A stretch of DNA of 64,000 bases from a virus: positions 64,001 through 128,000 of the IMG/VR virus record IMGVR_UViG_3300030098_007301. One strand, written 5' to 3'. Position numbers and translations under genes: made by a program. Numbering within the stretch: the first letter of the stretch is position 1; each line of letters opens with the position of its first letter. Under the pieces are notes generated by a model. That model had not been told where the DNA came from. It did not search any database and saw only the letters and a list, made by a program, of their open reading frames with translations. Positions 9,295-50,768 of the stretch are shown piece after piece.

Positions 9295-12200
9295 TTACAC
9301 ATCTTTTTCAACTACGAGGCTATCTATATCAGCTCTTTCGCCGTAAATAGTGTAGAAACAGTCAATTGTTTCACCTTCGGCCGCTCCAATTACAATTTGA
9401 GATAATGAAGCACTAACAACATATAAATGCTGGAATCCTCCCCTTGGAGTTAGTTGAACTGTAATAGTGTCTTCTCGTACAAGACCAGACCAGTAATCTG
9501 GCAAAGTAATTGTATTTGATTGAGTTGTTCCTCTATAGTAAACGCCATATTCTGGCCCTTCCAAAGATCCGTGTATTAATTTTTTATTTTCTTTAGTTGG
9601 GTGGTCTATTACGAAAGACTTAGAAGAAGCAGCAAAAGCTCCATTAACTTCAAGTTTATAACTACTAGAAGAACTTGTTCCTATTCCTACGTTCCCTGTT
9701 CTTCCTATCACCATCCTAGAATTGATATCACTACTACCGTTGGCTGTGCTGAAATGCAGCTCTGAATATTTATTCGTATGGTCGAGCATTTTGCATATAA
9801 ATGCACCCGCGTACCATCCGGTTCCACCTTCAAAGGTTATAGCTGATATTTGTCCAGCTGTAGTTGCTTTGTTATTTATTATAACTCTGCAATTAGTCCC
9901 CCAAGCTTGGTTTTCGTTTGTTATAATGGAGTCTCCTCTTAGACGCATTACCGCAAAGTTTGTGTTATCTGTACCTATTCCAATCATTGGGTAGGTATTT
10001 TGACTTCCAACCCATAGAGCTATGTCATCATTAAACTGAGTATCAGGCTCGCCCCAAACAACAAATCTACCATCGCCTACTTCGTAGGTTCCAATCCCAA
10101 CTCTGCCATCATTTTTGATGATCATTTGAGTTTTAGGTGAGGCGGTATTGTCGGTGATAAAGTGAAAATCTCCTACATTTGTAGCATTTTGATATTGATA
10201 AGCGATTCTTCCGTCGGCGTCTCTTGCTCTAAAGTCTAAGTTGGCGTAAACACTATTACTTGCTTGAGCGTTATGAATTAGTAGGCCTTTGCCCGCTCCG
10301 CCTCCACTTAAACCCTCCTGAGTAACATTAGTAGAAGTACTTAAATATTTAACTTCAAATGTTTTATTAGGCGCCCCACTGCCAGTCGTATCGTTTACTA
10401 AAACTCTAGTCGCACCATCTCCTCTATCATATATACCAAATGATGGTGAAGTACTATTATTTTCAGTAATAAAAAGGAATTGGCCTTGGTTGCTGGTGCC
10501 GCTGTATTGAAATGCTATTCTTGCATCAGCGTCGTGAACCCTAAAGTCAATTGGAAAATAAGTATTAGCAGTAGTGCTTGTATTTTGCCCCCGAATTCCG
10601 GGGCCTGCAGTTCCGCTCAAGAAACCGGCTTTAATGTCAGTAACACCAGAGCTATAATAAACATGTAAATTCGCGGAGGAGTACGCATTCAAACCTATTC
10701 CAACATTACCACTACCATCAACTCTTAAATAATCACCGACTCCATTTTTGTGAATTGCAAATGTTCCGCCAGATGTGAGCCTGTTATACCAAATATGTGA
10801 TCCGCTGGTATAACGAAGCTGATAATCTGTTGCCTTTAATTGCAAGCGTAAGTTTGAATCAATCTGCAAAGATTGCGAGCCAGCATTGTAGAAATAAGTG
10901 TTATCACTTCCAAAGTATATTGCTTCGTCACTTTGCAAGGAACTTCCGTTGTATATGCCAGAGTATGTTGAGTCGCTATATGTTTTTAATTTTGTTGCGG
11001 CAGAACCAATGATCGCATCTCCAAGTACTTCTAATTTTGCAGCCGGATTATTTGTTCCTATACCGACATTGCCTCCAGAAATAACACGCATTCTCTCTGC
11101 ACCGTCAGTATAAAACCTTAAATAATCACCACCACTAGAACCATCTATTTTTGCAGCAGTTCCGCCCCACCTAATACTTTGTCCATCATCAAGGAAAGAG
11201 TCTCCTGAATTTATTCTAACGGTGCCGTTAACTTGTAGTTTAAAGGATGGAGCATTTGTTCCTATACCAACATTGCCACCTATAAAATAAGAAGATCCTG
11301 CAGTTCTTAAACTTGTTTTAGTAACGTTGTTATCCCTTAACTCAAGTATACCTTCAGTGCCGTTGTCGTATAAAAGTCCAATACGAGTACCTGTATCGCC
11401 ATCAAGAAACTCAGTATCACCCTTTACGGAAAGAGCAACACCGCCAGTGGCAGAAGCTCCGCCAATAGATACAGTACCAACGCTATTAATAACCGATTGG
11501 ATATTTCTATCACCTACGATTCTAGTCCAATTTTGGTCGCTGCTAGTTCCCCATCCAGATCGCCAATAGAACTCTGACGCTGAGTGCGCAAAATAAAATT
11601 GACCCCTAAAGCTATTAATCGACCTTAAAGTAAATAAAGCTCCGTAAGAATAAATCTGACTAGGTGTTTGTGTTAATGTACTAGGCGCATTAGTTGTAAT
11701 AGTTCCACTACTATTAGCCCAATGCCCATGAGTTGCGTCGTATCTATAAAACTGACAAAAACTGGCTTCGTCATTAGAACGATAATAATCGTTTAAGTTA
11801 TCTGTTCCATACGGTCTATCACCTAACTGCTTGAAAAATCCATTACCTCCCAACGAAGCGTTTCCGGCGCTACTTAAAAATAAATATTTTGATCCACTTC
11901 CAGCGCCGAAACCTACTCCAGAATTTTCAAAATATACTCCAGCAGTATTAACTGCGCTAACAGTAATCGCTGGGTTGGTAGAGTTTCCTGCCGCTGACCC
12001 ATTGCCTAGACGCAAATTAGTACCAATTCTTGCGTCTCCTCCATATACATCTAATTTGTAACCGGGAGCATATGTTCCTATGCCAACTTTACCGGAAGTA
12101 TTAATAGTAATATGATCCCATGTTGAATTTGCCCCTAGACTAAGGGCGTTTCCACTTGCGGCCTGCATTCCAAAACCAGTTCCTCCACCCATAGTACCCC

Positions 12201-16302: not shown

Positions 16303-16311
16303 TATAAATCC

Positions 16312-19300
16312 TTATGATACTGCCGTTGCCATTCCCATCACGTGGTAACTTAGTTTACCTCCCAGTGTTCCGTTAGCAGCGGTGCTTAATTTTAATTGTA
16401 TAGTAAACGTATCACTACTTGGGTCTACTATTTTTGATTCAATTGAATCAGTATTCGTATTGTCAAATTCGCTTATCACTGTTCCGGGCTCTGCATATCC
16501 GTCACTTCCATTTTGTATAAAGTATTCACCGACAAATGCTACGGCACTATGACTGCTCCAATCGCCACTTAAGAATAATTTTACATAACAGCCAGTATGG
16601 TTGTTTAAATTAATTGTAAGGGCTGTAGTATAAGTATTTCCATTTAAACTTACATCTTTATAACCCATCCAGTTACCGTTATTAGTGGTACCTACTTTAA
16701 AATCGCCTTCGACGTGAAGCTTAGCGGCGGGAGCTGTCGTAGAAATAGCGACTCGGTCAGTTCCTGCTTCAGTGAATAAGAGATAATCATCAGTATCTCC
16801 CTCCACCCTAAAGTCCATGTCCCTGCCGCCCTCATTAACCACCATCCTACCGTTATGGACTTCCAATAACGAAGTCCCATTAGCCTCACGGCAAAGCAAG
16901 AAGTGGCTCACTCCTCCTATAATATCTAAACCATAACTCGCACCATCCAAGTTAATTTTCGCGGCCCAATCCGCACTTGAATTATCATATATATAAAACT
17001 TAGCGTCGGGACTAGCTGTATGGTTAGTGCCTCTTACAATTTGTACTGAATCAGCATTATCAGAAAGATTTCTAAATATAGCACCGGTTCCGTACACATC
17101 TAATTTGTCTAGCGGCTGTGCCGTTCCTATTCCGACATTACCGCTATTCTTAACGAATAAACCCGTTCCTAGGCCTGTATAGGCAGCAAGTGCGTAAACA
17201 GTTCCATTCGTATTAGCAGTACAGTCCACGCTAAGGCCATAACCATGCGCGTTTGTGTTTTTGATTATAGCAGCCCAGTCATTAGCATTTTCCAGCACGT
17301 TAAGTTTTGCGCTTGGCGCATTCGTTCCTATACCAACATTACCATCAACATTTATGCGGACCTGCTCTACTCCTTTTGTATAAAAGCGAGTTATTCCGTG
17401 GGTAAAATTAGCGTTGTTTTTTGATTGCTGCCCAATTGTCAGTATGCCATTACCCGCTCCAGCCGTGCCGGGAGCATAGTGAAAATCACAACTTGTGTCC
17501 CAATTCCAGCCCGTTCCCAAAGTAACACGGCATGAGCCACTAGCCCCTCCTGAGCCACCTATTATCCATAAATTACCAGCAGTAGATGAGTCGTAACCTA
17601 GCAGCCTTGTGGATCCAAAATAAACTGAATTGGAATAACTGGTAAGTTTCACATCGCCACCAGTAACATGGAGCTTGTAGCTCGGACTTGCGGTTCCGAT
17701 GCCAACATTGCCGTCATTTTTAATAATAAATGGAGAGGCACCATGGACATACATATAGGTGCTAGCCGGGCAATCAGTATCATTGTAGTCTTGATTTACT
17801 ACAAAGGGGTAATAATGTACTCCTACTTTCCCTCCATCCTGCACCCAAAGATTAGTATTACCAGAAGAGTCAGTTGTTTTAAGCGTAAGTCCCGTTCCAC
17901 CGCCAGCTCCTTTTATTTCTAATCTTGAGGCTGGACTTGCCATGCCGATGCCAACATTGCCGTCAGACTTAATACGTATCCGTTCAGTAAAAGATGACCC
18001 AGTCGTAAACACCAACCCATCCGAACCATTCTCGACATTTATGGAACCACGGACTTGAGAAGAATCTTTTAGTTGAACATAAGCACCACCCGATTTACTA
18101 AGTATGAGATTGCCGCCAGTATCTACTCGCAAACTTTCTGAACCGGCAGTGTCAATAATTGTCTCATTAGTACGTAAACGAAAAGTCCTAAAACCGTCAT
18201 TTGCAACAGTGCTTGAAAGAACTTGTATTTCGTTTGATACAGAATCGGGGTCAACACGCCAATTACCTTGAGTCCCTAATACGTTTAATTTTGATAAAGG
18301 ATTATTTGTTCCTATTCCTATGTTGCCAGTTGCAGTACAAACTAATCCATAACCCAAAAATGTACCTGACCCGTTGTACCGTTGAATCTCAAAATTATTA
18401 TTGTTGGAGTGTATCTGGTACGCATAGTAACTAGAACTGTATATAGCCCCAGTATGAACGTTTCGGTTGAAGCCAATGCCTTGAAGACTGTTAGTAGCCT
18501 TAAAATTCATGTGGCCACCGAGCAACACTTGCCCCTCAATGTCTAGGTTGTATTGGCTATTGGGGGTTTTGTTTAAACCTATACTGCCAGCAGAGGTAAT
18601 CCGCATCCGTTCTGTATGAACCGTTCCGAAACGCATTGAGTTGTCTGCGTGAGAGTACTCTAAATATCCTTCATAACGCGCTGTTCCAGAATTAGCATCA
18701 CCAAACCCAATAGAATGAGTTCCTGTAGTAGTAGACCAAAGCGTCATACCCCCAGTAGTAGTTCCCGGATTACCTACGCTTAAGTCAATAGTTCCCCCTA
18801 CTCCATATTCAGTTGACCCGATAGCTACATCTTCACCATTAGTAGCTATAGTTGAATTTCCAATTGCGCTAGATCCAGTGAATTTAGGTATATAATTTGC
18901 GCTTCCAGAACCTGAGATGTTACCTCCACCTCCGCCTCCGCTGACTGTAGCCCAAACTACTGTCCCGCTTCCATCAGTTTGCAAGACTTGGTTTGCGCTA
19001 CCATCTGTAGTAGGGAAAGTAAACGCATTGTTAAATGTAACTGCTCCTCCGGAAGCATTGATTCTCATCCGCTCCGTATAAGAACCTCCACCCATAAACT
19101 GAACATTACCTGAGCCGCTCCAGCCATATTGCAAAACATTACTAGAAACTCTAGCAATGGTCCGAGTTGTTCCGCCGCTATCCTTGGATCTAATTTCATA
19201 GTTATGATCCATGAGGAAATTGCCGCCATTCATGTAGATGTCTCCACCTACTTGAAATTTATAAGCAGGACTAACGCCTACGCCCACATTCCCATCAGAT

Positions 19301-22300
19301 TTTACTTGGAATTTAGTTGAGTAACTAGAGCCCGGAGTTTGGATTACGAATAATCCATTTTGGTTACCAAGGTAAACATGATTTCCCCCTGACGCTTCTT
19401 TAATAGATATATAGCTATTAGCACTAGTACTTTCGAAAATAGCAGTTGTCCCTGTGCCGTAAACATGAAGAGTATCGGCAGGAACATGTGTTCCTATTCC
19501 AACACTAGCATGGCTAACATTTATAACTTTAGCGATGTTACTTGTCCCATGTTCCCTTGCTCCAATATGAACCATACCTCCATATTGACCATCTCCAGCG
19601 TTAGGTCGACTCGCCCATATTCCGGCTAAGGAAGTCTGAGTTTCACTGCTATTATATGCTCCTGCAAAATTAATTCCCCCCGCATGACCGTTTGCGTAAG
19701 TGTTAGATGAAGCAATTACTACATTATAATTTAGGCCATTAAAACCACCTATAGTAGGTCTTAAAACATGGAATCCAGCCCATGGAACATTTGTCCCTAC
19801 ACCAACGTTACCATTTTGGTTCATTGCAAGAGCAAGAGTATCCGGGGTACCATCTGTAGCCGCTCCGAATCCAAAACTTATTAACGCATTATTACCACCT
19901 GTATTATTTAAATTAGTAAGAGAAACTCTTCCAGAGGACGAAGCGTTATATCCTAAAAATGCGCCTATAGAAGCTGTAGAGCCTCCAACTTTTACAGCAC
20001 CTTCATAATAACCATTAGACACAGTTCCAGCTTGATAAACATTTAGTAATTGAGTTGGAGAATTTGTTCCTATTCCAACTTTACCTGATGTCACACTTAC
20101 AGTATTTAGGTAATTAGTGCCAGACTGCCTCGTCCCTAGATAAAACCTACTAGGCGTATAGCCAAACATGGCCCTGTTATTGTCGTCTGCACCGCAAGAA
20201 ATTTCTGAATTGACATGGAGCTTTGAGCTGGGACTTGCCGTGCCGATACCTACGTTGCCGCCGCCCGTGACACGTACTCTCTCTGTATTGCTGGCTGATC
20301 TAAAAATTAAATCGTCAGCAGAGAAATCAACATAAGCCGCAGAACCATTGTGACCTAACTGCAAATAATCTCCAGACGTAGAATGTTCTGAGCGTATCCA
20401 AGGTGCAGTTGTGTCAATATGAAGCTGTACTGCTGGAGCATTTGTTCCTATGCCAACATTACCGTCAGCCTTTATCCGCATCTTTTCAGTAACAGCAGTT
20501 GCATTATTGGTCGTTAAAAATGCCAGATACCCACTAACCGCAGTATTGGTATTAGACTGAACTCCCCCTCGAACTTCAGAATGAACTATGTTGGCGGTAC
20601 CATCGTTGTCTTTCCCCATGAACTGAAGGTATCCCAATGGTGCGTCATCAGCGGGAGATGCAGCATTATTATATAGTTGTAATGCTACTGCGTTGCTGGC
20701 TCGTTCAAATTTGATAGCGTCTCCAAGAACATGGAGTTTCTGCGCTGGCGCATTTGTTCCTATACCAACCTTTCCACTTTTAATATAAAGCCTAGAAGTT
20801 GATCCTTCCCTAATATTAAAATTATCTCCGCCCCCGTCATAGTTAGCCCTAATAGACCAATCTACAGAATCGTCGCTACCGAGCCATTCTATATCGCCGT
20901 TGGCTACTACGTTTCCAGTTCGTTTTAGTTGTATTTTTGGAAGAAAAGCTGCTGATCTAATTGTACCACTTACCTCAAGTTTTGTGGCAGGGTCAGAACC
21001 CCCCAATCCTATACCAACGCCAGTAGCAGTTATTCTTATTTGCTCGGCGTTGTTGGCGTACAGCAACGTTTTTGTGACTCCTGTATTTTGAGCTAATACA
21101 GTTCCCCCATATCCGCTTAAAGTCATTGGGGTAGTATAGTTGTAATGAGCGGATAAATCTGCATGATAAGCTGTGTTTTGGGCAGCTTGAAGTGTGATTC
21201 TAGCCTCACTAGAAGCCTCTACAGTTAATCCTCCCGATGCTCCTGTGTTGTCGATAAAAGCAGCTCCAATTACATGGAGCGCTTTCGATGGAGCATTTGT
21301 TCCTATGCCAACATTCCCGTCAGCGATAACCCGCACATGCTCACTACCGTCTACTTCTAAAGTAAGAAAAGAACTTGCAGTCTCATCACTAGCGTCAGCT
21401 TGTAGTTTTAATGCGCCGTCAGATGCGTCTATATAAGCTAATGGGGTTCCCGACGCGTTACTATCTCTAAATCTTATTATAGGACTGCTGCCGTTTATCA
21501 TCAACAGATTGAGAGGTTGATCCGTTCCTATACCAACATTACCTGCCTCAAAAGTGGTCGCCATATTTCCACCATCATAACGAAACCTAATTGGCTGTTT
21601 TGTAATAGTGGTTCCATTGGCTTTTTTCATTTCAGCGCCAATACATAAACCATCTGTCGTGCTCCAATTTGGAGATGCAGAGTTTAAGGTAGAAAGTCTA
21701 ATCACCTCGGGGATTTCATTATCCCCTACGGCACTTTTAGTAATATGTAGAGGTACGGCTGGACTTACTGTTCCTATACCAACAGAACCTTCCTTCAGGA
21801 TCGACAATTTTATTGCGGTTGGATCACCCCCTTTAGCCGCAGAAGTTGAGATAGTAAAATCACCGTAGGCTCCGTTATTAGTGCCTATAGACCAATTTCG
21901 GGTATTGCTATCTGCATATCCGGAGTAAAGCCCAATTATGGGTGAAGTGGCAGATCTTACAGTTAATAATTTAGCCGGATTATTTGTGCCTATACCAACG
22001 CTCCCTGCGGAAGTAATATTAAATTTATCTCCCCCGGCCCATTGCAAACCAAACGTACCATTATTATTATCTATATCCCAACTACCTGTAGTAGATTTAA
22101 GACGAAGAGTAGCAAAGTTTGAGGCACTTTCTATAATTGTCCAGCCATATATATGAAGTAAAGATGCTGGCGCATTTGTTCCTATGCCAACATTCCCGTC
22201 AGCCGCAATACGCATTCTCTCTGCGTTGTTTGTAGCAAACTGCATATACGCATTTTCATACAACCAAAAATAAGCTCTCGTTGAAAGCTCCGCAGCGATT

Positions 22301-35307: not shown

Positions 35308-35313
35308 TATTGT

Positions 35314-35342
35314 TTGACATAATTCCAAATTACCCTTAAAAT
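35314..35342 (+). promoter_or_regulatory. Host sigma70-type promoter for the glycosyltransferase
   Basis: TTGACA (35314-35319), 17-nt spacer, TAAAAT (35337-35342); ATG at 35351. Confidence 0.7.
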
Positions 35343-35350
35343 ATTTGCAC

Positions 35351-36004: not shown

Positions 36005-36367
36005 TTTAGGGTAAGTGGCTTTTACGCCACTGCAACTCTGAAACCATTGAGAGCTCTTGGCGCTTTCGCCGAAAACTCCTGACTGTATATCCCAATAAAG
36101 CATATCTAATTGATCCGAAACTGGGGCATACCCTGACACCGCTTCAACTCGTTGATTTTTATACTGCGCAGCTTCTATTTCTGCCTCTATAATATCCCAC
36201 GTAGACTCAAACTCTTCCTTTGATTTTAAAGGCGCGTTTCCCGTAGGCCAATTTGCAGCTAAGTCTTCGTATGTATCGTCACTAGTTGAACAAGGACCCC
36301 ACCATGTTTTAGGTCCGACATAATATCCCAATCTTCTTAGGACAAGTGGTAAATGCATTTTTCCCAT
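35996..36367 (-). CDS. Putative tail-fibre assembly / associated protein
   Basis: 123 aa following a fibre gene; YAPVSDQLDMLYWD...VKATYPK motif of a kind found after aquatic phage fibres. Confidence 0.6.
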   Translation of the reverse strand: MGKMHLPLVLRRLGYYVGPKTWWGPCSTSDDTYEDLAANWPTGNAPLKSKEEFESTWDIIEAEIEAAQYKNQRVEAVSGYAPVSDQLDMLYWDIQSGVFGESAKSSQWFQSCSGVKATYPKSS

Positions 36368-36386
36368 AATTATTTATATATGTTTA

Positions 36387-39392: not shown

Positions 39393-42300
39393 TTAAATCC
39401 TTTTCTTCAATTCCTGAACTTCCTTATAAAGTTCTTTAAATCCTCCCAACAGTACTGTCACTGCTCGACTATAATTTACACTGGAAGGATTACCTTTTTC
39501 GTCCTTCTCGACCAATTCCGGAAACAATTCCGCAAGTTCTTCCGCGATTAAACCGATTTCTTTTTTCTTCTTATTTTCTTTTCTGTTGTATTTTACTGGG
39601 CGGATTTTATTTATTATATCCAAACTTGGAGTATAAGTTTCAACATTTTCTTTTATAGCGATACTTGAAGTTTCAGTTAAGGTTCCTGTCACGGTAACTC
39701 CGCCACTCGTAGTTTCAAATTTCTTGCTGTTGTCATAGTATAACTCAACGGCACCATTTGCAGTCGCATTTAGTAAGTGCTCAGTAGAAGACTTGAACCT
39801 AATATTGCTGTTTGTGTCTAAAATTATGTCACCAGTTGATGCTTCTTTTATATAACTGTTAGAACCATCGTGGTAAATTTGCAGATCGTCACCATTACCG
39901 TATACAGATTTAACATTATCCCGCATTCGGACTAAGTCCATTGACTCATCCCATTCCCAATATCGCCCAGAGGTAGCACCAAAAAAACGAACATCATGAC
40001 CTGCATCATCTACGCCTACCCTCACGATTCCATTTACATGCAATGAAGCTTCTGGCGAAGTTGTTCCTATGCCAACCCTATCCCCATCGCCGTCAACTGT
40101 TAATATAGGAGTAAGAGCACTACCAGCATTATTATACTCTCCCATATCTAAACGTGAGCCAGTCTTTCTTATACCTAAGCGGTGGTAAGCCGTGTCTGTT
40201 CCATGGAATTGTATTTCTGCTCCCGCCGAAGTGCCACGACTAATCATCAAGTCACCAACAGGGTCTCCACCTATACCAACATTTCCGTCATCTGATATCA
40301 CTAATTTAGGACTCGCAAAATTAGCTCCAGTTGAAAAAACAAAAGCATTATTAATTGCGTCGTCATTACCTATTGTCCATCTATCTGCGTAAGTATCAGC
40401 GGCAACAGTTTCTCTGAAAAAGATTTTAGTTTCGCCACTCGAAGAAATCCTTATAGCGCCATTAATAATATCTAGTCTTTGCCCCGGAGTTATGGTTCCT
40501 ATACCTACGCTACCGTCAGAAGTAATTCGCATCGCTTCATCACTCGCAGTAATTCCGTTAGTTTTGAAACGGACGTAGTCTGTTGAAGCAAGAGTAAGTC
40601 CGTAGCCGGTGTTAACTGCGTTAATTTCAAATTGGTTAGTTCTGTCGGTTCCTCCGCCAGTAGCTCCCCATAAATTTATATATGATGTTTTTGAATTATT
40701 AGTTAAGGATATAGTTGGGCCAACTGCATCATTTTGCTTAATATGTAATATTGTTCCCGGATTGTTTGTTCCTATTCCGACATTGCCGTCATTCTTAACG
40801 ACCATTCGTGACGCACTATTAAGTCTGTCGTAAATTTCTAAAGAACTGCCTGCAGATATATTTGTACCGATTTCCCAACGATTTGCTACTGTTCCACCTA
40901 CGTTAGACTTAAACCAAACTGAAGCATTTGCATTAGCTGTGCTTGACTCTATATGAACTATTGAAGTCGTTCCTTGGACATGAAGTTTTTGGGCTGGACT
41001 TGTTGTTCCTATGCCGACACTCCCTGTAGTTTTCGCAATAGTGAAAGGAACTAAAGTGCTAGTAACATCCGTTATTCTAAAGCCATTTGTAAAGTCAGCA
41101 CTAATGTCATAGACATAGTTTGAGCTTGTAGAATCTTCAAGCCGAAGCGCTGCAGTTCCTCCGAACTTGATGTGAATTGGTTTAGCGGCGACATTACTCA
41201 CTGACGAATTACCAAATATTCCAGTCGTAGCTCTAAGTTGGCCATTTACTTCCAGCTTATTAGCGGCATTTGGAGAGACGTTAATTCCTACTGACGTTCC
41301 GTTGTCAGTTATTTGGGAGTTTCCTATCGTATCACTGTCGGTCCACTTAGTTACCTTATTGGCTGTACCTGAACCATCTACTGCTCCGGCCCCGATTGCG
41401 GTTTCTATAACATTCCCGGATGAATCTACAGATAATTTATAAGCAGCAGTCCCCGTATGAGTTCCCGATCCGTATTTATATAACGTGAACATCCCTGTTA
41501 CGCCTGACAAATTTAACAATAAGTCACTAGCTGAGACTGCCCCTGTGCCTGCGTGCCTACCTATTTGAAACCTTTGATGCGACTCTGCGTTGTCATTCCC
41601 ATTACTATCTAGATTTATGAAAAGTCCACCGTATGTGTTAATTCTTATATCGTCATCCGCATTACCCGAAGAATTACGAGAGGAAATAGAATGGTGGGCA
41701 TTATTGTCACCAAAAAAGGTGATATAATCACCCTTTGTTTCAAAGTTAATGTTACCGTCGACAGTTAGGTCGCTATTAATGTAAGTAGCACCGTTTACAT
41801 AAAGCTTTGCGCTGGGGTTCGTTATTCCTATACCGACATTGCCGCTGTCTTGAACTGTAAGAGTTTGAGTATTATTCTCTGTGCCTATATAAACTCTTCC
41901 AGCTGTTCCAAGCCCATCTGCGCGAAGATAGACATCATTGGACGTATCAATATAGAACATTCCTCTATGCCAAGAGGTAGAGTTAGCAGCGTTTTCATAA
42001 TCCTTGTTCCAGACCTCAACATACGATTCCCTAACTGTAGTGCCATTTGGCATCACGCGTAATGCCATAGCGTTGTCTGCAAGAGGTCTTAAATGAGCGT
42101 AATGATCAGCAGTTTGAGCTTTTCCTAAAGTAAATCCAAGGCTCCCGCCTTGAACTGTTATTTTAGTAGCAGTAGTATTCGCGGTTGAGTCCTCTACATG
42201 AAGTCTTGTAGCTGGAGTATTTGTTCCTATACCAATATTACCACCGAAACGAATTACAAAACGATCAGCGTAAGTTGTATTGCTACCAGTCACGCCTGAG

Positions 42301-45300
42301 AATCTGAGGTCTCCTTGACTGTGACCATTACTTTCTCCTGTGGTGTTAGCACCGGGAGTAACTACATTTATCCTCCAATAGTCTTTATTTAATCCACCGT
42401 AATCATCTATAGGTCGATTGCTTCCAAAAGCTAGCATTTGATACGTATTGTTAGAAACAATATTTTGAGTGATTCTTTGTTTTCCAACTACGTCTAATTT
42501 TTCTACTGGACTATTTGTTCCTACGCCAACACTTCCATTAGAAAGATATAAAACATTAGATACTCCCCCAACATCAAATTGAATTTTATTACTATTGTGA
42601 CTTCCTAATATTCTAGTATTTTCATTATTCCAATCTATAGATTCACCATTTGGCAATCTTAAGCCTCCCCCTACCAATTCTAATAATTTACCCGGGTCTG
42701 TTGTTCCTATACCAACAAAACCAGCCGAAGAGCCTGTTCCACCACGAATTGTCATGGCTACAGTGTCTGCTGGGGCAAATTGTATTAAATTTCCATCTGT
42801 GGCTGACTGGTAATAAGTAGTAAACTTCAACTTGTTTTGCCCCGACTGATCAAATACTATATCAGCCGTTTGGGTTCCGCCGCTGGAATGTTCAAAATGA
42901 ATCTTGGGTGCAGTGGCACTACCAGCGGTTGTAGCCCTAAGTTTGAGAAGATCAGGGCCAGTACCTTGAACATGAAGAAGATAACCCGGATTATTTGTTC
43001 CTATACCTACAAGGCCCTCTTTATTAATAACCATTCTTTGCCGGATGCCTTGCGTCGCAGCACCAGCCGTTGCAAAAATTAATTCACCATCAATCCAACT
43101 ATCGCTATTCCCTGTACCTAATGGTGATCTAGCATAAATAGCTGCCGTCGCCGCCTTATAAGGACTAGATCCAGTTTCCCTTTTTGCGAAAAGAAGCATT
43201 GGGGAGAACCCGCCTGCGGTAGTGTCGTCATTATATAATATTAAACCGGGTTTTGTTGGACCAGTCGTCGTTCCATCTGAAATAGCGATTAACGCTCTAA
43301 AATCATCAGTATTAGTAACAGAAGGATCATAGTCGCTGTGGCTACCTGTGTTGGCGATATAAATATCATTACCGCCATATGCAGTTCCCGGTATTGTATA
43401 ATTAGCGCCTATTTGTAATTTACCAGTGGGGTTACCTGTGCCTATGCCAACATTACCAACAGAGGTAATACGCATATGCTCAGTACCGTTATTTGTGAGA
43501 AATTTGATATAATCATCATCCTTACATTGAATTGTCCAATGGGTACCTGCGTCTAAAAATCCTACCATGCCACCGTTTGCATATATATAACCATCTGTAT
43601 TACCCGCGCTATCTTCAAACTGTATTCCTGTATCAGCACCTGAGCCTTTTATTTTAAGCGATGAATTATAACCTCCGCCTGCTATTTCTAACTTTGAATC
43701 AGGACCTGTTGTACCTATACCAACTTTTCCATCTTGCTGGATGGTCATTTTAGCATTAGTTATCGACATAGGGTCACTATTATGACCTGCAGTAAACATT
43801 AACTTTTCAGTCCCAGCAGTACCATTACCTACTTGCAATATAGCGCAACCATAATTACCCGCTGCCCGCTGCAAATAAATAGCTGAAGATACAGCATCAT
43901 TAGCTCCAGTTTTAAATAGATTTAATAAAGCTGCTGGAGCGTCTGTTCCTATACCAACATTACCGTCAGCCAAGATACGCATCTTTTCAGACATCGTTCC
44001 ATCTTTTCTGGTCTCAAAAAATAGATCAGCAGTCCTATTCGCTGAAGTAGAAAAATCTTCTATGGCGATCGCGCGAACTGATGCACCGTTGATTCCGTTT
44101 GCAGGGCAAAAATATAGATTAGAGGTATTGTTAGCGGTAGCCGTATTATTGGAAAGGTAAAAATTAGCAGTAGTAGCATGAGTGCTTTGAAAAATTGCAA
44201 CATCAGTGTTGCTGGTTTGAACTTTTAGTCTTGCATTTGGATTATTTATCCCTATACCTACATTACCTCCAACAACATGCATGGTTTCGGTATCAGTGCC
44301 CGCCACTATAGTACTAAACGTTAAACGGCCATCTTCTTCTGTATCAGTATTATCAACAATAAATGATTCGATTGTACTGTACCGCGTATTATTTCCTCCA
44401 TCATCTTCAGCATCAAAACGAATAAAATTAGCAAGACCAGCATTAGTAGCAAAATCTGTTCTAAAAGTAATACCAACTGGCCCCACTCCATTATTATCAA
44501 AAAACACTTCTTGAGCAGAAGCTGAATCTGTATGTATATGGAAAATAGTTGCGGGAGCATCTGTTCCTATGCCAACATTACCGTCATTTTGTATTGTTAA
44601 AGCTTCTGTAGTATTATTAGTAAAGAATGATATATTAGAGTTTTCATAGTTTTGAATTCTCAAAGCAGAGGAGTTGTAACCTATCCTTGCTCCGTCTGTA
44701 GCTGTAGCTCCTAATCCCCCATCTGTAATTCTAATGTAACCAAAACCATCTGCACTTCCATGAACATGTAAAGCGTTGGCTGGATTTGTTGTCCCTATAC
44801 CAACATTACCATCCCTTGTGAGCGACATTATGTCAGATTTAGTACCAGAAAAATTACGCCTAAAGGTTAAACCATCTACCCCACTTATGCCTATATAATA
44901 ACCTTTTCTCTCTCCTGTCCTTTCTATGTAAATTCCGTTTTCAGCAGAAGTGCCAGTTTGTTTTATCGCTAGGGCTGCGGTCCCCAAGTCATTAGCAGCG
45001 TCAGAGAATGAACCCCCAATATGTAAATCTGCTTTAGGGGCGATTTGTCCTATACCAACATTACCGTCGCCAATAATACGCACTTTTTCTGAAGATGTAC
45101 CAGCATTGTCTGTGGAGAACGAAATGTAACCGGTATTGTTAGCTCCCGTAGTCCCCCCTTGAATCATTGCTACTCCACCGACATTATTTCCAAAAAGTAT
45201 TGTACCAACAATATCTGTGGTATTGTTATTGGCATGTTTTAAGAATATTTCCGCCCCTTCGTCATGCGCCCCATCACTTAAAAGTTGTAATAGCGAAGCT

Positions 45301-48300
45301 GGAGCATCTGTTCCTATACCGACATTTCCGTCAGATTGGATACGCATTCTTTCCGCTAACGTATTGCTTGCTTCAGTATGAAAAGTTAGATTACTGTTTC
45401 CTGCTGAACCATAAAAGTTAGCGATAACTGCGTCGGCTGAAGCCCCCGCGGTACCCGCTACAGATAACCCCAAACTAACAAATTGCCCGTTTGCAGCAGT
45501 GCTATAGTTACTTAACTTTAAAGCATTATCGTTCTGGGCATTGCTTATTGAAGTCGCTGATGAACTTTTTTCAACTTGCAAAGGGTTTCCGGGGTCAGCT
45601 ACTCCTATGCCAACTCCAGTAGATTTAACCACTAAATGATTGTCATTAAAACTTGCGCTAGCATTAAATTTCAAAGCGGTAGCGGAATGGTCCCATCCTA
45701 TTTTTGCATTAGTAGCGGTATCCGCTAATAAGAAATAGATATCATGCGAAGCCCCTCCTTTTATCTCTACGCCAACGTGATTGTCAGTCTGAACTCTAAG
45801 AGGTATATCGTTCCCAGCGATATATACGTGAAGCCTTTCAGCTGGAACTGTTGTTCCTATACCGACTTGACCGCCATTTAGGAAACTAACTGTCGGCGTA
45901 GCGCCACCTGCTAAAAAGTCTAACCTGTCTTCGGTGGCGGTTTTTACAAACTGTATATCGAAGGCGTTTGCTGCCGCTCCGTTCTTGCTATTAAATCGAA
46001 GTTTAGCGTTTCCTGTTGAGGTATTTAATTTGCCAATATTTAAAATAGGGGAGGTATAGTTTAGCGTTAATTCCCCCGCCATTTGAACTGAAGTATTACT
46101 TGGAACTGTGATAATGGAGTCCCCAATCGTATCGGAGTCTGTCCATCTTGGGATAGTATTAGCGGTACCGGAGCCATCGACATATCCTGCTCCAATCGCC
46201 GTCTCTATAATATTTCCGCTGGAGTCTACCGATAATCGGTAAGCAGTAGTTCCTGTATGAGTTCCGCTGCCGTAAGAATTAAATTGGAGTTGGCCGTCGC
46301 CCTTAATAGCCAGTCGAGTGGCCGTGTCAGTAACATCGTAAAATTCTAAAACTCCATTAACAGTTTGACCATCTACAATTCTCCAATTCTGAGTTGTGCT
46401 TCCCGTCTTCTTAATTTCAAAACCTACTGTAGAATTAGATGCAACTTCAGCTTTTACTATAGTGGTCCCTAAAGTTTTATTAAGATGAAGGAGCTCATCA
46501 GGAGAAGTTGTTCCTATGCCAACTTTACCGTCAGATAAAATGCGCATCCGTTCTGAACCGCCAGTATCAAAAATTGTCTCGTTAGTTCGTAAGCGGAAGG
46601 TCCTAAAACCAGTATTTGCAGTATTGGATGAGAGAACCTGAATTTCGTTTGAAACGCTATCGGGATCAACGCGCCAGTTACCTTGTGTGCCTAATACGTT
46701 GAATTTTGATAAAGGCGCATTTGTACCTATGCCGACATTACTGTCAGATGTAATACGCATCGCCTCGTCTATCGTATATTGAGTGCCGGTCCGGGTAACA
46801 TTAAAAGTTAGAGCTTCGTTCCAATAATTTCCATAAGCAGTAGTTTTAACTGAACGTATATAAATTCCGTAGCCAGCTGTCCCAAGACCTCCTAAACGTA
46901 TTCCTGTATAACCACCTATACCTCCAAGTTCATTTCCTCCAAAATATGCAGCATCTTCTGATGCGTTAGAGGAGTTTGACCCTGATGTAGAAGGCATTAC
47001 CTGAAGTCTATTAAGGGGAACAGTTAAACCTACGCCAACATTACCATTAGTCAGAAGTGACATTATGTGGACTGGCGTGGCAGTCGGATTAACGGAAGAC
47101 AAGTCACAAGTAAACGCCAACCTGTCTCCTGTTGCAGTAGTGTCTGCTAGGGCTTGTATTCCCCACCACTGTCTATGGTTAGTTGAGTTATTATACGAAT
47201 TGGAACTGAAATATAGTTTAGGAGAATTGAAAGCGGCTCCTGTGAAATGTTGAAATAGCTGAACATATCCATGATGGAACAAATCACCATTGTTCATTCC
47301 AACATTTACGTCTAAAGCTGCAACTCGGCTATTGCCAGAATCTGGTTGATTTCTGTGGTAAATTCTTGCGGTAGGAAGATCGTCTGTGAAACCGCCGTTA
47401 TGATAAATATCTAACTTTGCTGCTCCGGGCTGATCTGTTCCTATACCAGCACGACCATTGTTTTTGACAAAGAAGCCTGTTCCCGCTCCTGTATAGGTAG
47501 CTAAGGCGTATACCGTGGTTCCCGTGTTCGATGAACAGTCTATGCTTAGGCCATAGCCATTAGCGTTTGAGTTTTTGATAATAACAGCCCAGTCAGCAGC
47601 ATTTTCCAGCACGTTGAGCTTTACTCCCGGGTCCGTTGTTCCTATGCCAACTTTACCGTCATTCTTAATTATGAATGGAGCCGAAGCGTGATGAACATAA
47701 AAGAACGTTGAAGCAGGACAATCAGTATCCGAATTATCTTGATTGATAACAAACGGATGATAATGAAGCCCAGCTTTTCCGCCATCTTGAATCCAAAAAG
47801 TATTATTAGAAGATGAGTCAGTTGTTTTGAAAGTTAATCCAGTGCTACCAGCTGTTCCTTTTATTTCTAATTTTGCATCTGGATCAGTTACGCCTATACC
47901 AACATTTCCGTCGGACTTAATGCGCATTCTCTCCAGAATATTTGGAACACTCCCAGAAGCATCTGAAGTAAAAAACCTCATATCGGAAGTATGAGTTGCT
48001 CCCGGCTCCGTTACTTGAATTCTAGCTGTTGGGTTAGCGTGAGTTGTTGTTCTTGTGAAATCTATTACTCTAACGTTGCCACTTGATGACCCTATTTCTA
48101 TTCCGTCATTATCAGCAGAAGCAATAACCTCTAAAGTCTTGCCCGGAGACGCTGTTCCTATTCCAACGCTAGCATGACTAACATTTATAACTTTTTCTAT
48201 ATTATCTGTCCCGTGTTCCCTTGCTCCAATATGAACCATGCCTCCATATTGCCCGTCTCCAGCATTAGGTCGACTCGCCCATACCCCTGCTAAAACAGTT

Positions 48301-50768
48301 TGTGTTTCGCTACTGTTGTATGCTCCTCCAAAAGCAATGCCTCCAGCATGGGCATTCGCATAGGTATTAGACGAAGATATTACTACATTTAAATTCAAGC
48401 CATTCCAACCACCTGTAGTAGCACCTAAAACGTGCAATCTATGACTAGGTGAATTTGTTCCTATACCAACGTTGCCACCCCCTTTAATAGTTAAAGGAGT
48501 TATTGCTGTGCTGCTAGTTTTTGTTCTAAAACGTATATCACCGTTACTGTTATTATATGCGTTATCTATATAAAGAATTGATGTAGCATTATCGTAAGAC
48601 AAAAGTCCATGGAAAGCACTCTCTTCACCTAGTTGAATTGCTCCTCCGTCATTCCCTGCAGAATCCGGACCCCAACCTTTCGCTAATATTTGGGCTGCTG
48701 AACTATCAACGACTTCTAAACGTCTGCTTGGACTAGTTGTTCCTATACCAACGTTGCCATTAGACAGAATTGATAAAGCTGCAGTTCCAGCATTAGTGCC
48801 AACAGTTGCGTTTACATTAATGTCAAAACCTTGACTGGTTATAAGCTGTTGACTGCCAGTAGATTTAGCGGCCAATAATAAACCCCTTGTTGCAGAATTT
48901 TGTATTTGTAACGTTGCTGTCGTGCTTCCCGCATACGGCCTCCAGTCGGTTGGGGTTCCTTCTGATACAGTTAAATGATGATTTGTGGCGGCTGCATTAG
49001 TGACGTCAAATACTCCGGCTCCTCCTACTGTTATAAATTTATATACGGGATTATCTGTTCCTATGCCAACATTGCCGTTGTCATTTATCCTCATCCTCTC
49101 TACCGTATCAGTAGAAAAACCTACCTCAAAAGCTAGCCCCGCTCTTGCATTACCTGTGTTTAAGTTAACTGCTTGAATCCTAGCTCGTGTCCTAAACGAA
49201 TCTTGAAATTTAATCCCCCATTTATCCGACGCAGTATTTCTGTTATTATCAAGTGTTAATACGTCTAAATCTGCACCCCCAGCATGAGTAATCTCTGTTT
49301 TGCCGTTGTTTAGAACAGTGAATATCGCCCCGTCAGCATTATTCATCACGTTAAGCGCGATGTAACTAGCAGACGCATCACGCCCTCTAATAGCTAAAGC
49401 GGTGTTTGCAGTAGTAGTAGCTGCGTCAACAAATAAACGACCATAAGCGGAGCTTGTTGAACCAATAGAAACATTGCCGGTAGTATTTATGGCAAATGTA
49501 GCATCGGCATCATTCACCCCTTGAGGAATAATAAAAAGGCTATCGTCATTTCCATTATTTCTTATCTGCCACTTTCTGTCACTCCCCCTGAAGAAATCAA
49601 TTCCTATGTCATTGTTGCCCGCTGCAGACTGCAATTTAATCATTGCAGATACAGAGCTATAAACTTGAAATATGCTATCGGGACTAGTTGTTCCTATACC
49701 AACATTACCGTCAGACTTAATCCGCATTTTTTCTGTAGCGGAAGCGGAGCCATCAGGCGTAGTTAAGAAAAGTAAGCTGCTAGGCATGTCGTTAGCAGCA
49801 GCTGTAGCCTCCATGGAAGCAAAAATTGTTGCCATCGACTGGAAACTACTTCCATTGTAACCCTGAAAAGCTAAAGCTGGACCTTGAGCTGCGGGCAACC
49901 CCGCAGTGGGATTACTAAGGTCTTTAGCTCTTAACTCAACAACAGCTATACCTCCGTTTTCTCTAGTTTCGAAAGCGGCTGCTGCCTGATTAGTTGTCTG
50001 AATAACCTCTAATTTTCTAGCTGGAGATGCAGTTCCTATACCAAAATTGCCGCCAGTAATATAAGAAACGTTATCTGAATCTAATCTTATGGTTTCAACT
50101 CCCCCGTCCTTCTTTATGGAGAGCCTTCCGTCTCCAAGAGTTTGACGAAATACTAATAAGCTATCTCCGTCATGAGCGGATATTTGTAAAGGGTTAGCAT
50201 TGTCTTCAATACTTTTTATGCTAAGGGTATTGTTAGGATCGGCAGCTTGATTGATTCCGACTGCTACTCCGTTATCTTGTATAATACCCGAAGTTATAGT
50301 ATCCTCATCAGACCACCGAGCTACATAATTAGCAACGCCGGAACCTCCAACGCCGGATAAAACAGACTCAATACTTTTCCAATTAACGCCGGTTGTTCCC
50401 TCATTAGTGAGGACCATCCCTCCCTCTCCAATCGAATTATTAGAGTCATAAATGTTTCCAGATATGCCTAGTTTATTAACATTAAGCCGATTACCGTCAG
50501 TAAAAGTTAAATCAGCATCACCGCCGAAAGTTCCCGCGTTATTAAACTGGACTTGAGTGTTATCTCCGCCGGGAGTGCCTCCACCTCCGCCTCCACCAGC
50601 TAGCTGAGACCATTGAGAAGTGCCTCCAACTGTTCTTCTAACAAACTGAGTAAGATTGCCGGTGTTAATATAATACGCGCCATCCAATACCCCGGTAAGA
50701 GTCGCATCACTGTTTGGTGAACCGACATTACCTACAAATCTATCTCCTGCGTATCTTATTGTTGCCAT
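39393..50768 (-). CDS. Giant modular fibre protein (3791 aa) with a C-terminal peptidase S74-type intramolecular chaperone
   Basis: About 30 GNVGIGT-type modules; ends TSSIAIKENV...IRPVKY...IGLIAEEL..LFPELV...VNYSR plus a coiled coil. Confidence 0.88.
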   Translation of the reverse strand: MATIRYAGDRFVGNVGSPNSDATLTGVLDGAYYINTGNLTQFVRRTVGGTSQWSQLAGGGGGGGTPGGDNTQVQFNNAGTFGGDADLTFTDGNRLNVNKLGISGNIYDSNNSIGEGGMVLTNEGTTGVNWKSIESVLSGVGGSGVANYVARWSDEDTITSGIIQDNGVAVGINQAADPNNTLSIKSIEDNANPLQISAHDGDSLLVFRQTLGDGRLSIKKDGGVETIRLDSDNVSYITGGNFGIGTASPARKLEVIQTTNQAAAAFETRENGGIAVVELRAKDLSNPTAGLPAAQGPALAFQGYNGSSFQSMATIFASMEATAAANDMPSSLLFLTTPDGSASATEKMRIKSDGNVGIGTTSPDSIFQVYSSVSAMIKLQSAAGNNDIGIDFFRGSDRKWQIRNNGNDDSLFIIPQGVNDADATFAINTTGNVSIGSTSSAYGRLFVDAATTTANTALAIRGRDASASYIALNVMNNADGAIFTVLNNGKTEITHAGGADLDVLTLDNNRNTASDKWGIKFQDSFRTRARIQAVNLNTGNARAGLAFEVGFSTDTVERMRINDNGNVGIGTDNPVYKFITVGGAGVFDVTNAAATNHHLTVSEGTPTDWRPYAGSTTATLQIQNSATRGLLLAAKSTGSQQLITSQGFDINVNATVGTNAGTAALSILSNGNVGIGTTSPSRRLEVVDSSAAQILAKGWGPDSAGNDGGAIQLGEESAFHGLLSYDNATSILYIDNAYNNSNGDIRFRTKTSSTAITPLTIKGGGNVGIGTNSPSHRLHVLGATTGGWNGLNLNVVISSSNTYANAHAGGIAFGGAYNSSETQTVLAGVWASRPNAGDGQYGGMVHIGAREHGTDNIEKVINVSHASVGIGTASPGKTLEVIASADNDGIEIGSSSGNVRVIDFTRTTTHANPTARIQVTEPGATHTSDMRFFTSDASGSVPNILERMRIKSDGNVGIGVTDPDAKLEIKGTAGSTGLTFKTTDSSSNNTFWIQDGGKAGLHYHPFVINQDNSDTDCPASTFFYVHHASAPFIIKNDGKVGIGTTDPGVKLNVLENAADWAVIIKNSNANGYGLSIDCSSNTGTTVYALATYTGAGTGFFVKNNGRAGIGTDQPGAAKLDIYHNGGFTDDLPTARIYHRNQPDSGNSRVAALDVNVGMNNGDLFHHGYVQLFQHFTGAAFNSPKLYFSSNSYNNSTNHRQWWGIQALADTTATGDRLAFTCDLSSVNPTATPVHIMSLLTNGNVGVGLTVPLNRLQVMPSTSGSNSSNASEDAAYFGGNELGGIGGYTGIRLGGLGTAGYGIYIRSVKTTAYGNYWNEALTFNVTRTGTQYTIDEAMRITSDSNVGIGTNAPLSKFNVLGTQGNWRVDPDSVSNEIQVLSSNTANTGFRTFRLRTNETIFDTGGSERMRILSDGKVGIGTTSPDELLHLNKTLGTTIVKAEVASNSTVGFEIKKTGSTTQNWRIVDGQTVNGVLEFYDVTDTATRLAIKGDGQLQFNSYGSGTHTGTTAYRLSVDSSGNIIETAIGAGYVDGSGTANTIPRWTDSDTIGDSIITVPSNTSVQMAGELTLNYTSPILNIGKLNTSTGNAKLRFNSKNGAAANAFDIQFVKTATEDRLDFLAGGATPTVSFLNGGQVGIGTTVPAERLHVYIAGNDIPLRVQTDNHVGVEIKGGASHDIYFLLADTATNAKIGWDHSATALKFNASASFNDNHLVVKSTGVGIGVADPGNPLQVEKSSSATSISNAQNDNALKLSNYSTAANGQFVSLGLSVAGTAGASADAVIANFYGSAGNSNLTFHTEASNTLAERMRIQSDGNVGIGTDAPASLLQLLSDGAHDEGAEIFLKHANNNTTDIVGTILFGNNVGGVAMIQGGTTGANNTGYISFSTDNAGTSSEKVRIIGDGNVGIGQIAPKADLHIGGSFSDAANDLGTAALAIKQTGTSAENGIYIERTGERKGYYIGISGVDGLTFRRNFSGTKSDIMSLTRDGNVGIGTTNPANALHVHGSADGFGYIRITDGGLGATATDGARIGYNSSALRIQNYENSNISFFTNNTTEALTIQNDGNVGIGTDAPATIFHIHTDSASAQEVFFDNNGVGPVGITFRTDFATNAGLANFIRFDAEDDGGNNTRYSTIESFIVDNTDTEEDGRLTFSTIVAGTDTETMHVVGGNVGIGINNPNARLKVQTSNTDVAIFQSTHATTANFYLSNNTATANNTSNLYFCPANGINGASVRAIAIEDFSTSANRTADLFFETRKDGTMSEKMRILADGNVGIGTDAPAALLNLFKTGANDAVSSAIYLQRAAGNYGCAILQVGNGTAGTEKLMFTAGHNSDPMSITNAKMTIQQDGKVGIGTTGPDSKLEIAGGGYNSSLKIKGSGADTGIQFEDSAGNTDGYIYANGGMVGFLDAGTHWTIQCKDDDYIKFLTNNGTEHMRITSVGNVGIGTGNPTGKLQIGANYTIPGTAYGGNDIYIANTGSHSDYDPSVTNTDDFRALIAISDGTTTGPTKPGLILYNDDTTAGGFSPMLLFAKRETGSSPYKAATAAIYARSPLGTGNSDSWIDGELIFATAGAATQGIRQRMVINKEGLVGIGTNNPGYLLHVQGTGPDLLKLRATTAGSATAPKIHFEHSSGGTQTADIVFDQSGQNKLKFTTYYQSATDGNLIQFAPADTVAMTIRGGTGSSAGFVGIGTTDPGKLLELVGGGLRLPNGESIDWNNENTRILGSHNSNKIQFDVGGVSNVLYLSNGSVGVGTNSPVEKLDVVGKQRITQNIVSNNTYQMLAFGSNRPIDDYGGLNKDYWRINVVTPGANTTGESNGHSQGDLRFSGVTGSNTTYADRFVIRFGGNIGIGTNTPATRLHVEDSTANTTATKITVQGGSLGFTLGKAQTADHYAHLRPLADNAMALRVMPNGTTVRESYVEVWNKDYENAANSTSWHRGMFYIDTSNDVYLRADGLGTAGRVYIGTENNTQTLTVQDSGNVGIGITNPSAKLYVNGATYINSDLTVDGNINFETKGDYITFFGDNNAHHSISSRNSSGNADDDIRINTYGGLFINLDSNGNDNAESHQRFQIGRHAGTGAVSASDLLLNLSGVTGMFTLYKYGSGTHTGTAAYKLSVDSSGNVIETAIGAGAVDGSGTANKVTKWTDSDTIGNSQITDNGTSVGINVSPNAANKLEVNGQLRATTGIFGNSSVSNVAAKPIHIKFGGTAALRLEDSTSSNYVYDISADFTNGFRITDVTSTLVPFTIAKTTGSVGIGTTSPAQKLHVQGTTSIVHIESSTANANASVWFKSNVGGTVANRWEIGTNISAGSSLEIYDRLNSASRMVVKNDGNVGIGTNNPGTILHIKQNDAVGPTISLTNNSKTSYINLWGATGGGTDRTNQFEINAVNTGYGLTLASTDYVRFKTNGITASDEAMRITSDGSVGIGTITPGQRLDIINGAIRISSSGETKIFFRETVAADTYADRWTIGNDDAINNAFVFSTGANFASPKLVISDDGNVGIGGDPVGDLMISRGTSAGAEIQFHGTDTAYHRLGIRKTGSRLDMGEYNNAGSALTPILTVDGDGDRVGIGTTSPEASLHVNGIVRVGVDDAGHDVRFFGATSGRYWEWDESMDLVRMRDNVKSVYGNGDDLQIYHDGSNSYIKEASTGDIILDTNSNIRFKSSTEHLLNATANGAVELYYDNSKKFETTSGGVTVTGTLTETSSIAIKENVETYTPSLDIINKIRPVKYNRKENKKKKEIGLIAEELAELFPELVEKDEKGNPSSVNYSRAVTVLLGGFKELYKEVQELKKRI

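Follow-up and report, generated by a model that had tools for sequence, protein, structure and literature searches.

Codon-locked junctions in the giant fibre genes of a marine phage: a probable recombination seam for the exchange of fibre modules

The stretch of DNA analysed here, which we call the window, comprises 64,000 nucleotides (nt) of a virus (IMG/VR virus record IMGVR_UViG_3300030098_007301, positions 64,001 to 128,000 of that record), and it carries four large fibre genes whose modules are joined at a short peptide motif that contains I-G-T. The synonymous codons of this junction are locked over a patch of about 24 nt, the spelling of the patch differs from lineage to lineage, related genomes are mosaics of one another's modules with breakpoints that fall in the patch, and hybrid junctions occur where two spellings meet. 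We consider it likely, on these comparative grounds, that the patch is a seam in the literal sense, i.e., a built-in joint for short-patch homologous recombination and gene conversion by which the fibres that recognise the host are remade. A model that read the window from its letters alone (its statements are referred to below as the original prediction) had proposed that the junction is constrained or homogenised as DNA and may serve as an in-frame crossover site. That proposal gains support from the confinement of the lock, the lineage spellings, the breakpoints and the hybrids, and it is from these that we infer the mechanism.

Codon usage at the module junctions

The modules of the fibres are delimited by the motif (E-R-M-R-I-x-x-D-)G-N-V-G-I-G-T-x-x-P-x-x-x-L-H-V. 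Its I-G-T tripeptide occurs 55 times in three genes on the minus strand: 11 times in a gene of 2335 amino acids (aa; 9295..16302), 18 times in the C-terminal half of a 4239-aa gene (16312..29031), the N-terminal half of which is a shaft of TTGQT repeats, and 26 times in a 3791-aa tail-fibre gene (39393..50768). The 9-mer ATAGGAACA spells 33 of the 55 sites (5, 10 and 18 in the same order of genes), the copies being spread on the minus strand over 9676..16044, 18307..23757 and 40062..49697, respectively, with the first of the 18 in the tail-fibre gene at 40062-40070 and the last at 49689-49697. Ile is ATA at 50 of the 55 junctions, and the local spelling around the junction is GTTGGY-ATA-GGA-ACA. 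These exact counts agree with the manual ones of the original prediction, which gave about 33 of roughly 50 I-G-T sites as ATA GGA ACA, with the same numbers per gene and with nearly all Ile codons as ATA. Its estimate of module length (roughly 50 to 110 aa) is too narrow, since the 54 GIGT copies of the window, to which variants must be added, have a median spacing of 105 aa and a range of 39-589 aa, with 26 of 48 spacings at or below 120 aa and the others at 123-589 aa.

All 33 copies of ATAGGAACA in the window are in-frame IGT sites on the minus strand, where 0.67 copies are expected by chance (no shuffle exceeded 3). The permutation test of codon use that the original prediction had recommended tells the same way: the non-junction codon pools of each gene predict 2.2 copies, with 10 as the highest count among 20,000 samples (binomial P about 3e-31), and the commonest 9-mer of any kind reached at most 16 copies in permutations as against the 33 observed. 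Allowing for dipeptide context (Ile after Gly, Gly before Thr, Thr after Gly) lifts the expected count to about 4 and no further. General codon bias and codon-pair context were accordingly rejected as causes of the lock. A free-standing DNA motif, such as a Chi-like, methylation or packaging site, was likewise rejected because ATAGGAACA is confined to the IGT frame of the fibre genes and has no copy elsewhere in the window.

The spelling also persists where the peptide has changed. Drifted junctions that read VGVGT, VGIGV or VGINT, e.g., at aa 1918, 3075 and 3248 of the 4239-aa gene and aa 955, 1718 and 2746 of the 3791-aa gene, mostly retain the local style (GTAGGAACA, GTAGGGACA, ATAGGAGTA), and the DNA patch therefore outlasts amino-acid change.

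Extent of the silent-site identity

The excess of identical codons among pairs of junctions that share a residue, taken at each offset from the junction and denoted F, is 0.70, 0.43, 0.44 and 0.51 at I, G, T and position +3, with shoulders of 0.12-0.27 over the G-N-V-G residues at -4 to -1. It is -0.05 at Pro(+5), a residue that is 86% conserved, and -0.02 at Leu(+9), and deeper in the module bodies it scatters around zero in both directions, and nowhere is an excess sustained. What is locked is thus an island of some 24 nt, which spans N-V-G through I-G-T-(N/T) at more than 50 junctions of a single genome. Within it the codons have identities of their own, in that Gly(+1) is GGA and Gly(-1) is GGY. 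The four-fold degenerate codons of Gly(+1) and Thr(+2) are frozen, whereas a four-fold codon three residues away is fully randomised, a juxtaposition that excludes recent duplication; recent tandem duplication is rejected as well by the saturation of synonymous sites a few codons from the junction and by the failure of the flanks of identical patches to align.

Exact matches of at least 15 nt across the junction occur in 9.6% of junction pairs as compared to 0.6% under random back-translation, a sixteen-fold excess. Some patches are longer. Four junctions of the 4239-aa gene have about 32 nt in common while their module flanks align poorly: GAYGGNAATGTTGGCATAGGAACAAATGCNCC at 20437..20468 (minus strand) and near-identical stretches at about 21292-21323, 22171-22202 and 23482-23513. 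The control repeat NL(I/V)TTGQTL of the same gene (NLITTGQTLQTQI; 20 copies with TGQT, 24015..27939, minus strand) has randomised synonymous codons, with values of F in its core between -0.27 and 0.13 and hence no synonymous excess. Three further statements of the original prediction are thereby upheld, namely that longer near-identical stretches join otherwise unrelated modules, that the LITTGQT repeats use varied codons, and that the module bodies have diverged at synonymous sites.

Junction spelling in related and unrelated genomes

An IMG/VR scan in which the peptide G-N-V-G-I-G-T was the sole constraint recovered 225 sites on 120 contigs. In these other viral contigs ATAGGAACA accounts for 9 of the 225 sites (4%) and no spelling dominates; some contigs lock a 9-mer of their own (ATCGGGACG at 8 of 9 junctions, ATAGGTACT at 7 of 10 and ATTGGTACT at 4 of 7), and others are fully mixed. 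Relatives belonging to the phage family itself were found through a conserved 205-aa gene downstream of the fibres. Three of them (L121, L128 and L134) also use ATAGGAACA, and the sister phages L137, L140 and L141 lock GTCGGC-ATC-GGG-ACT-ACTGCG. This sister-phage lock, GTCGGCATCGGGACT, is made of codons that are uncommon in the sisters' own fibre genes: ATC accounts for 18% of the Ile codons and GGG for 21% of the Gly codons in the fibre open reading frames (ORFs) of L141. At 11 of the 16 junctions of L141 the spelling is ATCGGGACT, a 9-mer that lacks AGGA, and its F profile has the same shape as that of the window, with 0.13 at the conserved Pro. A lineage spelling drawn from uncommon codons is the signature of concerted evolution, and it argues against both codon optimisation and a pause signal of the Shine-Dalgarno (SD) type. 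The genome of L140 contains both spellings, with the ATA type and the ATC type linked to different flanking codons (Fisher P 0.007-0.02). Two further relatives, L142 and L143, which come from two metagenomes, have identical junction counts and spellings.

The coding pattern for G-N-V-G-I-G-T was seen as well in genomes of Patescibacteria (the candidate phyla radiation, CPR), Omnitrophota, Planctomycetota, Bacteroidota and Bdellovibrionota and in archaeal metagenome-assembled genomes (MAGs), so that the family of fibre modules evidently extends far beyond phages. The average lock in bacterial genomes is weaker, with a mean F of 0.16-0.31 at -4 to +2 (0.05 at Val -2) as compared to 0.04 at Pro+5. 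Some of these loci nevertheless lock their junction; a Doudnabacteria MAG (L169), for example, has ATCGGGACG at 5 of its 6 junctions.

Homology breakpoints between relatives

To the extent that comparison can establish it, the junctions are points of exchange. Relatives share modules with the window at 80-97% identity, re-ordered and placed in other fibre genes. The backbone of L121 is about 95% identical to that of the window across some 11 kb, and its fibre gene is collinear with the window for about 475 nt before it becomes a mosaic of modules, 83-95% identical, that match positions 2843, 1342, 2436, 2585 and 1036 of the 3791-aa gene and positions 2343 and 2982 of the 4239-aa gene. Each of the five places where its modules abut coincides with a GIGT junction or with a variant (GNVGVGT, GDGNVGIGG); the abutting high-scoring segment pairs (HSPs) overlap by 3-34 nt on the junctions, and the first module block starts 8 nt before its junction. 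The breakpoints of 13 relatives, which the original prediction had suggested comparing with the motif, cluster there: 43 of 121 HSP edges fall in the junction window as against 6.2 +/- 2.4 by permutation (maximum 17), the ends of homology blocks are concentrated on the final base of the 9-mer, with the starts 6-15 nt ahead of it, and 13 of the 16 abutting, non-collinear breakpoints are within 25 nt of a junction (11.6% expected; P 3e-10). Modules 93-97% identical to those of the window occur in genomes with a backbone that is about 70-75% identical, i.e., far less than the modules, and the transfer is therefore recent and lateral.

Similar edges are found inside the window, where blocks that are paralogous between the 3791-aa and 4239-aa genes begin and finish at junctions and where an extra module lies exactly between the IGT sites at 3777 and 3900 of the 4239-aa gene. 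A Tara strain, L123, is 99.5% identical to the window over 3.1 kb and diverges completely just after the ATAGGAACA at aa 1041 of the 3791-aa gene (47637..47645, minus strand), the junction at which a module homology block of L121 also starts; the module that follows in L123 had no match in the window, in the compared loci or in IMG/VR. Modules that L140 has in common with genomes of the ATA type are joined to modules of the ATC type via hybrid junctions, e.g., GTCGGCATCGGG|ACAAATAAT, and such hybrids are the trace that a crossover inside the patch would be expected to leave.

Seams are a hazard for the assembly of short-read contigs. The L123 contig ends 19 nt past the junction 9-mer (window about 47616-47645) and the L292 contig ends 14 nt before one (window about 21320); contig ends near seams possibly mark strain-level branching.

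Among strains with an identical 362-aa neighbour we found no junction-level variants of the 4239-aa gene, which was present as an identical copy or else was represented by a wholly different fibre gene. The latter is the case in L290, L295 and L296, where the 362-aa neighbour is identical in amino acids and a different fibre gene replaces the equivalent of 16312-29031; one replacement gene is complete (1339 aa), and matches are limited to a few shaft repeats at 71-79% identity. Whole-gene replacement is thereby added to module shuffling.

Another kind of variant was seen in the 2335-aa gene. The Tara assembly L127, which is otherwise 99.4% identical, has 55 extra bases in three adjacent runs at window positions 14136-14146, near aa 720, that split the gene into ORFs of 735 and 1638 aa. 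The site is the start of a paralogous block (aa 718) and not a GIGT junction, and the insert may be either a real frameshifted variant or an assembly glitch.

Fibre architecture and genome context

In a phmmer search the junction region aligned to three repeats of Bdellovibrio Bd2133 (PDB 8OND, chain 8OND_A; E 3e-8). Such fibres have been described as mosaic adhesive trimers (MAT) of intertwined trimeric beta-helices, the edges of which bear capping loops with the consensus V-G-G/N-pi-x-x-P-x-x-x-L that are also found in S74 phage fibres (Caulton et al. 2024, PMC10769870). The repeated motif of the window has this capping-loop form (V-G-x-G/N-small-x-x-P-x-x-x-L-H), and the 3791-aa protein ends in a Peptidase_S74 chaperone domain (PF13884, residues 3701-3753, E 5.8e-10). 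Peptidase_S74 was absent from the 2335-, 4239- and 1001-aa proteins in a Pfam scan, and these would then be of a non-S74 type. The four fibre genes thus probably encode chains of trimeric beta-helix modules of the MAT or S74 type. The alignment to Bd2133 and the capping-loop consensus together indicate that the junction is a structural cap between beta-helix units, which would explain why its amino acids are conserved and why a crossover there yields a product that can fold; it leaves the silent-site lock unexplained.

The fourth fibre gene (1001 aa; 36387..39392, minus strand) has three GIGT junctions, spelled ATAGGGACA, ATTGGTACA and ATTGGTACT, none of them canonical, and its modules are also found in relatives. 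The window is phage DNA. Its genes include those for PhoH, for a sigma-like factor, for an ERCC4 nuclease and for the large terminase (56147-57979). Nearly all of its long ORFs lie on the minus strand, and no tRNA genes were found in the 64 kb. The source phage, which is uncultured and has a genome of roughly 169 kb (that of a relative rated 100% complete has 170 kb), is abundant in Tara Oceans: Tara contigs are identical to most of the window, among them a 151.8-kb scaffold that breaks inside two fibre genes, and exact copies of window proteins occur in dozens of marine assemblies. A megablast search with the backbone against GenBank phages gave no match.

Recombination functions

The original prediction had advised a search for recombinases in the rest of the genome. 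Recombinase content was assessed in two relatives rated 90% and 100% complete, both of which have a gene for a RecA-family recombinase. The same two relatives gave no match to RecT, Erf or reverse transcriptase (RVT_1), and neither they nor the scanned ORFs of the window gave a match to tyrosine or serine recombinases (PF00589, PF00239). A diversity-generating retroelement was rejected given the lack of an RVT_1 match in these relatives. The original prediction saw no recombinase in the window, which holds with the exception of one gene of the recombination or repair type, for the ERCC4-family nuclease (57979..58917, minus strand; E 7.5e-10, above the Pfam cut-off). This gene, of the XPF/Mus81 type, lies directly upstream of the large terminase gene and overlaps it; any link between its product and the junctions is speculative. 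In related marine phages (L159-L166) the RecA-like gene precedes, at a distance of two small genes, a gene of the tubulin family (PF00091, 414-417 aa) that is reminiscent of the PhuZ tubulins of large phages.

The proposed recombination joint and its alternatives

Protein constraint fixes the amino acids of the junction, and near-identity over about 24 nt is added on top of it. We propose that recombination uses these patches as its short stretches of homology. Either the RecA-like recombinase of the phage family or host enzymes could carry out strand invasion or annealing, or copy-choice template switching could be at work, and exchange would take place among misaligned junctions of one gene, between different fibre genes and between co-infecting relatives. 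A crossover in the patch would automatically be in frame and at a structural domain boundary, and whole modules would be deleted, duplicated or swapped. Repair of the heteroduplex, limited to the patch because the flanks are non-homologous, would homogenise the synonymous sites by gene conversion, and junctions homogenised in this way would remain good substrates for more exchange. Conversion limited to the patch would explain why each lineage has drifted to a spelling of its own, and recombination combined with such conversion would account for the confinement of the lock, the lineage spellings, the linked haplotypes, the hybrid junctions and the positions of the breakpoints. We infer the enzymology and the conversion step from these patterns; the lock itself may have been selected because it makes the fibres evolvable, or it may be a by-product that reinforces itself.

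Several points weigh against this reading. The support for it is wholly comparative and comes from short-read metagenome assemblies. Most of the identical patches measure 9-21 nt and few exceed 30, lengths that lie below the efficient range of RecA-type recombination, so that events would be rare or would take another route. The RecA-like gene was not placed on the window's own scaffold, and two close homologues lie on other contigs. The third base of Gly(-1) (GGT or GGC) is weakly homogenised (F 0.12) in spite of its place in the patch, whereas a simple conversion tract would be expected to give a smooth decay. Many other genomes with GIGT fibres have little or no lock, and the lock is therefore not required for this type of fibre. 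Finally, selection for working fibres would by itself enrich breakpoints at domain boundaries.

This last point leads to the alternative that the seams are a passive by-product, in which only boundary crossovers are functional and the spelling reflects a single, recently expanded pool of modules, with no role for DNA identity. Selection for intact domains must indeed filter recombinants, and spelling correlates with which genomes share modules. Against this, the module bodies of one genome are saturated at synonymous sites, even at the conserved Pro+5 and Leu+9, and the identity at the junction is therefore not a matter of recent common descent; a module shared at 85% identity bears the local spelling in each genome, which implies conversion or crossover inside the patch; and exact in-frame joins made without homology would be very rare. 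We regard this alternative as unlikely. A translational signal, in which the locked ATA-GGA-ACA would pause the ribosome for module-wise folding of the beta-helices by way of an SD-like AGGA or slow codons, seems quite improbable. The lock is in frame and exactly at structural boundaries, and the difference between GGY at Gly(-1) and GGA at Gly(+1) means that position matters, both of which such a signal would explain. The AGGA version, which the original prediction offered as its alternative, finds no support because sisters of the same family lock ATCGGGACT, and the minor share of ATAGGAACA among the GNVGIGT sites of other viruses speaks against any universal signal. Nor is the lock like one pause codon, since it covers about eight codons, including N, V and +3/+4, in linked haplotypes; ATA is common in the phage's own genes (39-50%), the window has no tRNA genes, and a pause would leave the location of breakpoints in the patch unexplained.

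In a site-specific system the 9-mer would be recognised or crossed over by a recombinase or nuclease dedicated to it (shufflon-, invertase- or homing-like), with a specificity that varies between lineages. In favour of such a system, the sites resemble those of shufflons and tail-fibre invertases in being short, conserved, oriented and in frame, and an ERCC4 nuclease gene is in the window. We hold it to be very improbable: all junctions are direct repeats on one strand, which would resolve as deletions and not inversions, tyrosine and serine recombinases and reverse transcriptases had no match in the two relatives mentioned, the motif is never outside the IGT frame, and the breakpoints are scattered over about 25 nt in place of a single phosphodiester. 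It is conceivable, lastly, that the mosaic fibres of the relatives are chimeric contigs made by assembler jumps at the repeated junction, given that all relatives are short-read metagenome contigs and that L123 and L292 break at or near junctions. Chimerism is unlikely, though it may yet affect single-copy relatives, because no fewer than eight independent contigs, which differ in sample and assembler, repeat the arrangement of the window exactly along 9-10 kb. L142 and L143 moreover agree, the final k-mers given in contig labels (k127, k141) exceed the shared patches (3-40 nt) in length, and the codon lock and the paralogue breakpoints within the window are independent of the relatives, all of which makes an artefact an extremely remote explanation.

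A more tentative extension of the recombination joint, which we think rather doubtful, is that the spelling acts as a compatibility code, with phages of the same spelling forming separate pools of module exchange. A few silent bases would then bound the circulation of host-range modules, and homogenisation of the seams would be maintained because it keeps a lineage in its pool. The data fit such pools of ATA-GGA-ACA and ATC-GGG-ACT phages: in relatives of the ATA type, 34-85% of the module regions are found in the window as well (identity of 80% or more), whereas two ATC-type genomes that are equally diverged in the backbone have no modules in common with it, and the mixed genome L140 shares modules with both spelling types; this matrix of sharing comprises few genomes and is confounded with ecology and host.

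Comparison with known systems

Short conserved in-frame border DNA enables cassette exchange in shufflons, in the Min, Cin and Gin invertase systems, in Borrelia vlsE with its 17-bp repeats and in the orphan toxin-tip arrays of contact-dependent inhibition (CDI) and Rhs systems, all of which rely on dedicated recombinases and inverted repeats or on silent donor cassettes. Here, in contrast, all modules are expressed parts of the genes, the repeats all run in one direction and the two relatives gave no match to a site-specific recombinase; the hallmarks of shufflons and of Gin, Cin and Min are lacking in that there is neither a tyrosine or serine recombinase match nor an inverted repeat (33 of 33 copies are on the minus strand). 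Concerted evolution or recombination at conserved inter-module regions of giant genes is also known from modular polyketide synthase genes, including GRINS elements, where features of the DNA within coding regions favour gene conversion and the exchange of modules; these systems differ in the proteins and organisms concerned and in having repeats of hundreds of nt as compared to about 24 nt here.

In the adhesin genes of the T-even phages, short conserved motifs alternate with variable segments of the fibre that recognises the host, and exchanges, both natural and experimental, are established inside or close to these motifs (Tetart 1996, 1998, as cited by Trojet et al. 2011, PMC3157838). The logic proposed for the window is the same, and its fibres show the same alternation and have natural breakpoints within or next to the motifs; they differ in that fold and motif are unrelated and in that more than 50 junctions over four genes are found in place of a handful of motifs per gene. 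The likeness to MAT fibres lies in the capping-loop junction and the mosaic architecture (Bd2133, PMC10769870; PDB 8OND, 4UW8, 3GW6), and the S74 end is as in S74 fibres. The mosaicism described in the MAT paper (PMC10769870) is at the protein level, mainly in swapped tips, in fibres of about 1000 aa, and the paper is silent on DNA-level identity of junctions and on internal shuffling of modules; the phage fibres here are 2-4 times longer. Our literature search found no report of lineage-specific silent-site homogenisation of fibre motifs, of synonymous or gene-conversion effects in the repeats of tail fibres or of a GIGT motif in phages.

Significance

Tail fibres decide which hosts can be infected, and the means of their fast diversification are a central question of phage ecology and engineering. 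Recombination at conserved motifs was already recognised in the 1990s for T-even phages. What is added here is a quantitative signature at the DNA level, with silent sites frozen in a 24-nt seam and spelled differently in each lineage, together with natural recombinants that have their breakpoints in the seam, across four genes and more than 50 junctions. As a practical warning, short-read assemblies of such genes tend to break at the seams. If the proposed mechanism holds, the seams would provide natural in-frame joints for building chimeric fibres in laboratory work on phages and hosts, and seams of exchange could be found from sequence alone in uncultured phages and in the bacteria that carry this fibre family, i.e., CPR bacteria, Bacteroidota, Planctomycetota and Bdellovibrionota. 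It would also mean that concerted evolution can act on a patch that is shorter than a typical conversion tract.

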